This document shows, in pieces, positions 1 to 4,830 of a DNA stretch of 4,830 bases. A program made the position numbers and the translations under genes. The DNA is from a virus (lineage: Duplodnaviria > Heunggongvirae > Uroviricota > Caudoviricetes): IMG/VR virus record IMGVR_UViG_2576861193_000005; one strand, given 5' to 3'. The notes under the pieces were generated by a model. The model made no database searches. It was not told the origin of the DNA and worked only from the letters and a program-made list of their open reading frames with translations. Positions within the stretch are counted from its first letter, which is position 1. Every line of letters begins with the position of its first letter.

Positions 1-51
1 ACCGCCGGTATCAGCACCCCGCTGACATCCACCATTCTGGAGTTTTACTGA
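1..51 (+). CDS. 3' end of an upstream gene (16 codons, ...TAGISTPLTSTILEFY*), probably terminase large subunit (gpP-like) by P2 gene order; truncated by the window edge
   Basis: Frame 1 is open from base 1 to TGA at 49-51. That stop shares base 51 with the ATG of the portal gene, matching the P2 P/Q overlap as I recall it. No catalytic motif is visible in 16 residues, so identity rests on synteny only. Confidence 0.4.
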   Translation, partial: TAGISTPLTSTILEFY

Positions 52-1107
52 TGAGTAAGAAAAAAGGGAAAACACCGCGACCTGCGGCAAAAACAATCAC
101 CGCCAGCGCCCCGAAAATGGAAGCATTCACCTTTGGCGAGCCGGTGCCGGTACTCGACCGCCGTGACATTCTGGATTACGTCGAGTGCATCAGTAACGGC
201 AGATGGTATGAGCCACCAGTCAGCTTTACCGGTCTGGCAAAAAGCCTGCGTGCTGCCGTGCATCACAGCTCACCGATTTACGTCAAACGTAATATTCTGG
301 CCTCGCAATATTCTGGCTTCAACGTTTATCCCGCATCCGTGGCTTTCGCAACAGGATTTCAGCCGCTTTGTGCTGGATTTTCTGGTGTTCGGTAATGCGT
401 TTCTGGAAAAGCGTTACAGCACCACCGGTAAGGTCATCAGACTGGAAACCTCACCGGCAAAATATACCCGCCGTGGTGTGGAAGAGGATGTTTACTGGTG
501 GGTGCCGTCCTTCAACGAGCCGACAGCCTTCGCACCCGGCTCCGTGTTTCACCTGCTGGAGCCGGATATTAATCAGGAGCTGTACGGCCTGCCGGAATAT
601 CTCAGCGCCCTTAACTCTGCCTGGCTGAATGAGTCGGCCACGCTGTTCCGCCGCAAGTATTACGAAAATGGCGCCGGCGCTCATGCCGGATACATCATGT
701 ACGTCACCGATGCCGTGCAGGATCGCAACGATATCGAAATGCTTCGCGAAAACATGGTTAAGTCGAAAGGCCGCAATAACTTTAAAAATCTGTTTCTCTA
801 TGCCCCACAGGGGAAAGCCGACGGCATTAAAATTATCCCGCTCAGTGAAGTGGCAACGAAGGACGATTTTTTTAATATCAAAAAAGCCAGCGCCGCTGAC
901 CTGCTGGACGCGCATCGCATCCCCTTTCAGTTGATGGGCGGCAAGCCGGAGAACGTCGGGTCACTGGGAGATATTGAGAAAGTGGCAAAGGTCTTTGTCC
1001 GCAATGAGCTAATCCCGTTACAGGACAGGATTCGGGAAATAAACGGCTGGCTCGGTCAGGAGGTCATCCGCTTTAAAAACTACTCACTGGACACTGACAA
1101 CGGCTGA
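51..1107 (+). pseudogene. Q: P2 gpQ-like portal protein gene, disrupted by a +1 frameshift (16-bp insertion near 291-306)
   Basis: ORF 51..395 (frame 3) gives MSKKKGKTPRP...PIYVKRNILAS then junk to a stop at 393-395. ORF 133..1107 (frame 1) is junk until ~298, then RNILASTFIPHPWLSQQDFSRFVLDFLVFGNAFLEKRYS... to a stop at 1105-1107. Both frames encode RNILAS because aatattctggc occurs at 291-301 and again at 307-317. Removing 16 bp joins the frames into a ~346-aa protein, the size and sequence I recall for P2 portal gpQ (344 aa). Confidence 0.8.
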
Positions 1108-1112
1108 ACATC

Positions 1113-1134
1113 GCCGCCTGCGGGCGGCTTTTTT
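1113..1134 (+). terminator. Rho-independent terminator after the portal gene
   Basis: GC stem gccgcc (1113-1118), loop tgcg, ggcggc (1123-1128), then tttttt (1129-1134), starting 6 nt after the Q stop codon. Confidence 0.7.
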
Positions 1135-1276
1135 ACAACCCGCCATCACGCCCTCACACGCTCACCACCGCACAAAACAGCCCGCAGACACACCAACGCC
1201 CCGGCGAACAATCTAAACGCCATCACGACGCGCTCAGACGCTGAAAAAATAAAATCAGCACCACCGCCAGCGCGCA

Positions 1277-1295
1277 GTGCTTTCCCCGCCTCGCC
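1277..1295. other. cos: P2-type cos site (19-nt cohesive-end sequence)
   Basis: gtgctttccccgcctcgcc at 1277-1295 is the exact reverse complement of GGCGAGGCGGGGAAAGCAC, which I recall as the P2/P4 cohesive end. It sits ~170 bp past the portal stop, as in P2, where Q ends ~220 bp from the left genome end. Confidence 0.7.
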
Positions 1296-1312
1296 CGCCC
1301 GCTTCATGGGGT

Positions 1313-1338
1313 GGTTTTAATGCACGGTTTTAATGCAA
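1313..1338. repeat. Two tandem copies of a 13-bp direct repeat (ggttttaatgcac / ggttttaatgcaa) next to cos, followed by a partial third copy (aatgcac, to 1346)
   Basis: Direct reading: 1313-1325 and 1326-1338 differ only at the last base. The repeat lies 18-43 bp from the cos 19-mer. Function unknown. Confidence 0.8.
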
Positions 1339-3791: not shown

Positions 3792-3853
3792 TCTTTTTCC
3801 TTAATTAATTGTTAAGTTTCAATTACAACCAACACAATAAACTTAAGAAAATC

Positions 3854-3882
3854 AATATAATGCACAACAACAAAACTCACAA
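3854..3882 (-). promoter_or_regulatory. Candidate sigma70 promoter for the cargo gene (-35 TTGTGA, 17-nt spacer, -10 TATATT on the minus strand)
   Basis: On the + strand, tcacaa (3877-3882) and aatata (3854-3859) are 17 nt apart. The predicted start near 3846 gives a ~55-nt leader. AT-rich DNA yields many such matches, so this is tentative. Confidence 0.3.
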
Positions 3883-4015
3883 TACCTTACACGCTCGTTA
3901 CCTACTGCAAACTTATCTTGCAATACTAATAATCAAGTTTGAAATCATAATATCACCACATGAAATTGCCATATCGCAGAGGCTCCTTACTCGACAACTA
4001 AAATGTTTATACTCC

Positions 4016-4038
4016 AAAAAGTAAGTTTCTTACTTTTT
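4016..4038. terminator. Perfect 10-bp inverted repeat (aaaaagtaag ttt cttacttttt) between the GC-rich upstream gene and the cargo gene; possible weak bidirectional terminator
   Basis: The hairpin lies 20-42 nt downstream of the upstream gene's TGA (4058-4060). The stem is AU-rich and the U-run forms part of the stem, so predicted stability is low. Confidence 0.3.
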
Positions 4039-4057
4039 AACCGCATTAATTTCTACA

Positions 4058-4830
4058 TCACCTAAAACCTATCCACTCATCAGCGACCGGATACGTGAAT
4101 TGTTTCCCGTCATAATTTACAGTCGCGCCACGCGCCAGCGCCTCAAGCTCCCATCGCTGCGGCCTGATACCGTTCTGAGCAAGGTCAACGCGGATACGGG
4201 TGATTTGCATTCTTTCCGACCGGGTCAGTCTGGCCGATGGTGCAATTTCATGTAGTTTTAACGGGCTTCCGTTTCTTTGCTGACGGTTTGGTCTTCTCAG
4301 GCCGTGTTTTAATGCGCTTCTGAGCGCCCTCACAACCTCCGGGTCATTCCATTCGATAACACCGTCATCAACCAGATTAAGCACTGCTGCGGCGTGCTCA
4401 GAAGGTGTGGGAGCCGGTAACGAAGTATCACCGCCGGTGAGCTTTCCACAGTTATTGACAGGACTCCGAGGCGCGGCGATGCCGCTTTTTAAAGTCAAAG
4501 GCTCAACGACCGGCACTTTCGGAACAATGCGCCAGTCCGTCGTTCTGGTGATATGAATATGACGCGCGCCGAGATGCGGCGCGTAAATGCCGACCACTCT
4601 CTCGACTTCTTCCTCGTACTCGTTAACGTCATCCGACGGGCTACGGGCGACCCTGACAGTCTGACAATCGCGCGGGACATTTGCCCCGCCCTGCGCGCTG
4701 ATATACAACGCAAAATCACCACTGTCTGCAGCGGCGCGTGCAGCCTCGACGCGTTCATCAAACTCATCAGCAATGCTGACGCCGCGAGGCAATTTGCGTA
4801 GTTCACGGTAAGCCCCCATTGTCGGCAGGC
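4058..4830 (-). CDS. 3' portion (at least 257 codons) of a GC-rich prophage core gene running off the window; by P2 gene order possibly replication initiation protein gpA, identity unverified
   Basis: ORF 4058..4819 with TGA at 4058-4060. The frame stays open upstream of the Met at 4819 to the window edge and no Shine-Dalgarno precedes that ATG (upstream reads gcctgccgaca), so the true start is probably beyond the window. GC-rich like the Q side. I do not recognise a diagnostic motif. Confidence 0.6.
   Translation of the reverse strand, partial: LPTMGAYRELRKLPRGVSIADEFDERVEAARAAADSGDFALYISAQGGANVPRDCQTVRVARSPSDDVNEYEEEVERVVGIYAPHLGARHIHITRTTDWRIVPKVPVVEPLTLKSGIAAPRSPVNNCGKLTGGDTSLPAPTPSEHAAAVLNLVDDGVIEWNDPEVVRALRSALKHGLRRPNRQQRNGSPLKLHEIAPSARLTRSERMQITRIRVDLAQNGIRPQRWELEALARGATVNYDGKQFTYPVADEWIGFR

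Follow-up and report, generated by a model that had tools for sequence, protein, structure and literature searches.

The sequence analysed here (the window, 4,830 bp) is the complete contig AYKC01000084.1 of the draft assembly GCA_000511525.1, read in reverse. According to our analysis it very probably represents the cos circle-junction of an integrated P2-like prophage, in which the portal gene Q, its terminator tQ, the cos site, an acquired gene of defence type (hereafter the cargo) and the replication gene A would follow one another. The features are given below by window coordinates; signed positions elsewhere in the text are counted outward from the cos 19-mer.

1-51, plus strand: 3' end of gene P, the terminase large-subunit gene ("terminase ATPase subunit" is annotated upstream of the portal gene in the closest E. 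coli genome)
51-1107, plus strand: portal gene Q (Pfam Phage_portal), broken by extra segments at about 288-303 (16 nt, frameshift) and about 669-674 (6 nt)
1113-1134, plus strand: rho-independent terminator tQ of the P-Q operon, a hairpin with a T run, whose counterpart is the annotated tQ of P2 at 160-181
1270-1324, no strand: cos core of 55 bp, alignable in all 120 public loci
1277-1295, no strand: cos 19-mer, the cohesive-end sequence with a predicted staggered terminase cut (exact P2 match; linear phage records end at 1295)
1325-1337, no strand: extra tandem copy of 13 nt, CGGTTTTAATGCA, private to the window contig and a probable assembly artefact
1401-1428, no strand: distal cos element TGCATGCA-N5-ATGCA-N5-ATGCA with 10-nt phasing, cosB-like, conserved in position in P2-like phages and P4
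1440-3791, minus strand: cargo, encoding a 783-aa AAA_13 ATPase (Pfam AAA_13, 8.7e-34; PADLOC PDC-S06, 2.7e-154 over the full length)
3792-4057, minus strand: AT-rich region upstream of the cargo and part of the swapped module, identical in carriers of the same allele and diverged in the 83% allele
4058-4830, minus strand: 3' part of the replication endonuclease gene A (annotated as "replication endonuclease" in E. coli genomes)

The stop codon of gene P (TGA, 49-51) overlaps the ATG of the portal gene, whose intact product, seen in P2 and in further carriers of this cargo, has 344 aa. The tQ hairpin, GCCGCC-TGCG-GGCGGC at 1113-1128, is followed by the T run, and a spacer of 142 bp leads from tQ to the 19-mer. 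The cargo is transcribed towards cos, convergently with Q, and its GC content is about 0.30 as against about 0.55 in the P2 parts. None of the P4-like markers (psu-delta-sid, alpha primase, P4-type integrase) was found beside the cos of the window, where the neighbours are the P2 genes P, Q and A, and an Rfam scan of the window returned no family at the gathering score.

The 19-mer, GTGCTTTCCCCGCCTCGCC, is found once in the window, and with up to three mismatches allowed it had no match in 200 dinucleotide-preserving shuffles. It is the exact reverse complement of both cosL (1-19) and cosR (33575-33593) of P2 (NC_001895), as well as of cosL in phage fiAA91-ss, and the P2-type cohesive-end sequence GGCGAGGCGGGGAAAGCAC gives an exact reverse-strand match at 1277-1295. 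A previous sequence-only reading of this DNA had taken the 19-mer for the P2 cos, and no mismatch with the experimentally determined P2 cos is seen. Linear records of P2-like phages (fiAA91-ss, L-413C, P24A7b and others) terminate at query base 216, which is window 1295, and circularly permuted P2-like records continue past this base. The site thus combines the 19-mer, the 55-bp core, a position downstream of Q and tQ and linear genomes ending there, as a cos of P2 type (Peduoviridae) does. After a cut within 1277-1295, Q would in all likelihood become the first gene at the left virion end and the cargo the last at the right end. The placement of cos between the portal terminator (1113-1134) and the cargo (stop at 1440), made in the same reading, is correct, and its view of the cargo as the terminal gene of the packaged genome also fits, as the cargo would after the terminase cut take the position that old has in P2.

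Terminator-like hairpins with T runs flank the 19-mer at 1258-1273 (minus strand) and 1295-1314 (plus strand), both within conserved cos-flanking sequence, and each of these putative terminators lies just past cos for transcripts arriving from the opposite side.

The contig has certain peculiarities of its own, namely three short imperfect tandem duplications at 288-303 (16 nt, frameshifting the portal gene), 669-674 (6 nt, later in the same gene) and 1312-1337 (13 nt, directly to the right of the cos core). Each of them looks like a restart: up to some point the sequence agrees with one common P2 allele, and it then steps back 6-16 nt and continues in another common allele. Neither the closest E. 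coli genome nor any of nine other contigs with the identical cargo has the 13-nt copy, which occurs only in the locus that is the window itself (L135). As these duplications are private switches between alleles, in a short contig that ends in P2 repeats shared by many genomes, chimeric assembly is the most economical explanation, and all three probably arose by joining sequences of two or more co-resident P2-like prophages. In the contig as written the cos-to-array spacing is 13 bp longer and the portal frame is broken; a copy with these defects might fail in packaging, and the defects themselves resemble assembly artefacts.

The 13-bp tandem repeat was considered as a part of cos and rejected, being private to the window contig and a switch between known P2 alleles. 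The cos-flanking repeats invoked by the sequence-only reading have therefore to be sought elsewhere: the visible one (GGTTTTAATGCA, in two copies) is private to the draft contig and resembles a join of two P2 haplotypes, and the real flanking repeats are the phased ATGCA array at +96 to +125. The distance of about 145 bp between cos and the cargo stop, also given there, is right for the window (145 bp from the stop to 1295), with 13 bp of it contig-private, and amounts to 132 bp in the nine other contigs with an identical protein.

The cargo gene and its hotspot

The Pfam AAA_13 match of the cargo stops at profile position 571 of 713, so that the C-terminal domain stays unaligned. An alignment of 28 homologues, reaching down to 23% identity, keeps the Walker A, signature, Walker B and H-loop motifs, and invariant residues include G32, G37, K38 and T40, S567 and D570, D599 and D600, and H632. 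Invariant too is C283-P284-x-C286 (CPFC), and in the C-terminal domain R699 (within RPYLE) and N754 are invariant, E703 is found in the majority of homologues and H758 in at least 90% of them. An AlphaFold model (pLDDT 84) predicts an ATPase head in two parts, a C-terminal domain made of helices and, with long helices over residues 123-525, an extended coiled coil whose low-confidence apex holds the CPFC motif. The best PDB folds for this model are Rad50, SMC heads and Lamassu LmuB.

Several homologues of the cargo are named "wobble nucleotide-excising tRNase" by JGI. As far as sequence and model can tell, the predicted product appears RloC-like in layout: in common with RloC and PrrC it would have an ABC/Rad50-like head, a coiled-coil insertion with CPxC at its apex and a helical C-terminal domain, in which the conserved R-x3-E ... 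N-x3-H may be a counterpart of the Arg/Glu/His catalytic triad of PrrC/RloC, and the RloC-like features found include the motifs of the ATPase head and a CxxC in the coiled-coil insertion, a putative zinc hook. It differs from them in that Pfam AAA_13 does not align over the C-terminal domain and in that the RloC and PrrC models of PADLOC and NCBIfam gave no match to the cargo. Sequence searches with the cargo against NCBIfam and the PDB returned only weak matches to RecF-type ATPases, and a promoter scan of the region upstream of the gene gave hits no commoner than in shuffles. We regard the cargo as a candidate single-gene anti-phage system of the PADLOC candidate family PDC-S06. A literature search found no experimental report on PDC-S06, and the name of the cargo is absent from the papers on the hotspot, "AAA_13" from PMC9122126 and "PDC-S06" from PMC13586616.

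A homologue with 40% identity in Vibrio parahaemolyticus (GCA_021886035.1, L138, 900-18300) is located among genes for nSTAND3, DEAD/ResIII helicase, NERD/UvrD-like and family-B DNA polymerase proteins, in a chromosomal neighbourhood that is defence-island-like and free of P2 genes; together with the PADLOC candidate family this speaks indirectly for a possible anti-phage activity.

The locus of the window is the published gpA-cos-gpQ defence hotspot (PMC9122126), and the sequence-only observation is consequently correct but ordinary; the feature is confirmed and not new. Rousset et al. 2022 described the gpA-gpQ interval of E. coli P2-like prophages as a defence hotspot with 1,650 gene arrangements, and had already proposed cos as a possible substrate of recombination (PMC9122126). 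As cited in that paper, Odegrip 2006 and Nilsson 2004 also concern the P2-like gpA-gpQ hotspot, and Dodd & Egan 1996, as cited in PMC5694545, concerns retrons replacing the DNA between cos and the terminator in a 186-like prophage. From the hotspot of Rousset et al. the window has no essential difference, since it shows the same locus, the same adjacency to cos and unrelated low-GC cargo of defence type in near-identical prophages. The cargo lies between gene A and cos/Q, the content of the interval varies among related prophages, since the 68 E. coli-type P2-like loci show 46 types of right flank, and the stop codon of gene A forms the inner border of the hotspot. This context of a defence hotspot argues for a defence role of the candidate PDC-S06, RloC-like gene.

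P2 itself carries orf91, tin and old from gene A to cosR, all of them non-essential exclusion genes, and old is the terminal one. Its TO region (old, tin) shares with the window the identical 19-mer, the 55-bp core, Q and tQ on one side and A beyond the cargo, non-essential genes of exclusion type between A and cos, and the array at the same distance from cos. The two differ in content, old and tin with orf91 in P2 versus a single 783-aa AAA_13 ATPase in the window, and in orientation, as the promoter of P2 old, next to the array (mRNA start at about +151), points away from cos, whereas transcription of the cargo in the window runs towards it.

Among 5426 complete E. coli genomes the P2 flanks of the window are carried by 2212 and the cargo by 23. 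The cargo comes in two alleles, one giving a nucleotide identity of about 98% across the window and the other about 90%, and the proteins of the two are 83% identical. An identical cargo protein occurs on at least 22 contigs, and in the ten of these that we inspected the sequence of P2 gene A lies on one side and cos with the portal gene on the other, where the contig reaches so far; the 83% allele is likewise found between gene A and the portal gene.

Several of the public loci deserve a description for themselves. One of them (L126; GCA_002520745.1, NOQQ01000001.1, 9200-14200) is a prophage remnant between yegR and yegQ, which retains a 62-aa remnant ORF at the site of gene A, the identical cargo, cos, an intact portal gene and ogr, and has lost the other P2 genes; decay has here left the defence-type cargo and cos in place. 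In another carrier of the identical cargo (L128, ENA ERZ28591292) 69 bp of the Q-cos spacer are missing, the gap between cargo and portal gene being 251 instead of 320 bp, and the 19-mer and the right flank are intact despite this loss. A 32-kb contig (L130, Logan ERR425120_108) ends 2 nt before the 19-mer, which may be chance or may come from reads of cut packaged DNA. ISEc12, of the IS21 family, sits in or beside gene A or the hotspot in several E. coli genomes (H49, H55, H68). The "replication endonuclease" gene A stands at base 1 of many RefSeq chromosomes (NZ_CP173249, NZ_CP123325, NZ_CP101858), with the locus at about 1500-6300, and this is probably not biology but an automatic rotation of assemblies to a replication-type gene. 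Eight P2-like loci (L013, L022, L026, L031, L055, L096, L101, L102) have 0.9-3.2 kb of extra DNA with a GC of 0.33-0.37 between Q and cos, where ORFs assigned by eye include reverse-transcriptase-like genes with membrane partners (retron-like) and pairs of ATPases.

Core, spacer and array of a proposed bipartite packaging site

For comparison of the flanks we used 120 public loci with the exact 19-mer, oriented like the window and classed by P2 and P4 marker proteins. In all 120 the similarity to the window across cos ends at 1323-1325 (+28 to +30); with loci of other cargo it begins again at 4049-4073, close to where gene A stops, and on the other side the left flanks of P4-like loci diverge from about -7. 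Because the shared sequence spans from -7, where P4-like loci diverge, to +29, where loci with other cargo do, the shared core measures 55 bp, the same size as the core that PMC5694545 and PMC9594776 cite from Ziermann & Calendar 1990. It consists of the 7 bp GCGCGCA, the 19-mer and a right flank of 29 bp with a GC-rich hairpin, TTTTA and the first ATGCA. A role of the conserved stem at +1 to +19 as an RNA hairpin or terminator was considered and rejected, as the common variants, C/T at +1 and G/T at +16, are by eye non-compensating, and for the same reason we take the stem as a DNA recognition element.

The functional cos of Ziermann and Calendar is reportedly longer than 55 bp. In our set ATGCA-N5-ATGCA begins at +96 to +98 in 42 of 62 distinct right flanks, P4 included, compared with 4 times in 586 kb of background sequence from these loci, and a third ATGCA copy often follows the pair, so that the array spans +96 to +125. 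Over 59 cargo-side flanks that cannot be aligned with one another, ATGCA/TGCAT reaches a density of 3.05 per 100 nt within +37 to +136, against 0.2-0.36 per 100 nt in later bins and 0.20 in shuffles. The array is present in P2, P4 and P4-like satellites at a fixed distance from cos, and in the window it is offset by +13 owing to the contig-private duplication. In the cargo allele with 83% identity the array is 100% conserved and the spacer at +37 to +93 far more diverged. The stop codon of the cargo lies 12 nt beyond the array.

It would be logical to suggest, from this positional conservation, that the roughly 145 bp separating cos from the stop codon of the cargo are most likely not spare DNA and belong to the packaging site. 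We infer that this site is bipartite, with the 55-bp core, a spacer of fixed length and free sequence, and the phased ATGCA array, which is presumably a binding site of the small terminase subunit, in analogy to cosB of lambda. With the position of the array and the stop codon of A as its borders, the cargo would fill exactly the DNA that is free of packaging and replication constraints.

In lambda, cos is composed of cosN and of cosB with R sites and an IHF site, and it serves here as an analogy only. Both lambda cos and the P2-type cos have a nick site and a one-sided, asymmetric array of short repeats that reaches about 120 bp; they differ in that the sequences are unrelated, and the contact of P2 gpM with ATGCA is only presumed.

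Linkage across cos and its possible causes

Between cos and the far end of the cargo, contigs with the same cargo allele are nearly identical, with 0-10 mismatches over 2352 nt; their Q-cos spacer diverges from that of the window by 8-9%, and the last difference lies 10-55 nt to the left of cos. The segment +1 to +29 is identical in 31 of 49 unique pairs that have the same cargo flank and a different left side, versus 0 of 10 pairs with an identical left flank of 160 nt and different cargo. On the Q side the median number of differences per 700 nt is 29 for same-cargo and 30 for different-cargo pairs, and on the A side it is 11 and 47, respectively. When sites are taken singly, the excess of agreement with cargo type stays for the most part around or below zero at -264 to -10, with no value above about 0.5, and between +10 and +36 most sites score 0.65-1.0. 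Tested by permutation of the labels, the right block had a score of 0.241, a value reached in 0 of 500 permutations, and the left block one of -0.023, reached in 376 of 500. These linkage data come from 24 same-cargo pairs in 16 clusters, drawn from the 120 IMG/VR loci, and the pairs are not independent.

By these sequence comparisons the linkage boundary is within about 10 nt of the 19-mer, and not at +29 where alignability ends; it is the comparison of cos flanks across cargo types, advised by the sequence-only reading, that places it there. The claim that the terminal position favours horizontal exchange is likewise borne out, by the variety of right flanks and by the break of linkage at cos. 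The linkage analysis locates the break, and the mechanism is outside its reach. A 2026 survey of P2 and P4 defences deals with linkage at the level of genes, as a lack of it between defence and core genes, and cos is undiscussed in it (PMC13586616).

The simplest reading, which we infer from classical cos-phage genetics, would be a single crossover followed by packaging. The cut at cos would linearise the vegetative map, so that its two ends would be formed by genes that face each other across cos in the prophage. If two circular genomes crossed over once, a dimer would result, and packaging from cos to cos would cut out of it a recombinant in which cos itself serves as the second junction. 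For a terminal cargo, one homologous crossover at any point to the left would in this way suffice for a change of P2 backbone, where an internal gene would require two, one on each flank. From a single crossover with a terminase cut it would follow that linkage is lost on the Q side up to cos and retained with the adjacent gene A. We put forward tentatively, as possible rather than probable, that the packaging site is bipartite with the array, not the core, as the inner edge of the hotspot, and that the cut site separates the histories of cargo and backbone.

It may also be thought that cos acts as an active recombinator, that is, that ends made by terminase or present after injection stimulate exchange and drive the turnover of cargo, as has been speculated (PMC9122126). 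A linkage boundary within about -10 to +10 of the 19-mer would suit such activity, and so would the fact that cargo borders cos to the right in P2 and to the left both in P4 and in the eight P2-like loci with Q-cos inserts. Exchange stimulated by ends should, however, scatter the junctions in the homologous flanks near cos, whereas +1 to +29 almost always stays with the cargo and sites from -10 outward are unlinked to it, which fits a junction at the cut; a single crossover with cos-to-cos packaging would yield such a junction without any extra activity. We consider an active role of cos unlikely, although these data separate it from the single-crossover reading only in part.

A different explanation is that the cargo occupies a permissive gap, where insertions would disturb nothing, between the late operon, closed by its terminator, and the end of the replication operon, its closeness to cos being incidental. 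The module does have its borders where functional elements end, at the stop codon of A on one side and past the ATGCA array on the other; the portal operon is shielded by tQ, and the retrons of Dodd & Egan 1996, as cited in PMC5694545, lie between cos and the terminator. But P4, which is homologous to P2 DNA only at cos, also has a hotspot abutting cos (PMC9122126), P2-like phages use both sides of cos, and a permissive gap gives no prediction that linkage should break at cos with linkage on the A side kept. An incidental closeness to cos seems to us distinctly improbable, and a crossover resolved by the terminase cut would account for both of the latter observations on linkage.

The gop-beta-cII hotspot of P4 resembles the window in its 19-mer, 55-bp core, distal array and variable cargo abutting cos, and is unlike it in that the variable DNA extends from about -7 leftwards and the ATGCA side is held by the conserved psu. 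The sequence-only reading had seen in cos and its flanking repeats the means for mobilising the cargo by a P4-like satellite or by transduction. Such a mini-satellite of cargo and cos, or an exchange between P2 and P4 through the shared cos, could draw on the full packaging signal, distal array included, that P2 and P4 have in common, on the remnant with cargo, cos, portal gene and ogr, and on a few systems common to both hotspots (Rousset et al., PMC9122126), but it is very improbable, given that the variable DNA of P4 is on the opposite side of cos, that the cargo is in none of about 25 P4-like loci, that all ten inspected contigs with the identical protein are in P2 context (gene A, and cos with the portal gene where reached), that the 13-bp "flanking repeat" is an artefact private to the contig, and that P2 and P4 almost never exchange defence genes according to the 2026 survey (PMC13586616). 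A separate indication of P2-P4 exchange, right flanks that occur with several left flanks, was rejected because the marker genes identify P2-like phages with extra Q-cos cargo. Taken as a whole, the sequence-only reading stands in its observation and in the exchange favoured by the terminal position, and lacks support in its flanking repeats and in the route by P4 or transduction.

Meaning for P2-like phages and their satellites

The window is one more instance of a documented rule, by which P2-like prophages and P4 satellites keep swappable anti-phage genes at cos, and its practical value is modest. The array and its spacing probably matter for the efficiency of cosmid packaging by P2/P4. A terminal position that would need a single crossover may be useful for models of the turnover of defence genes. 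If true, the separation of cargo and backbone at the cut site would explain why P2 and P4 both keep their defence hotspots against cos.
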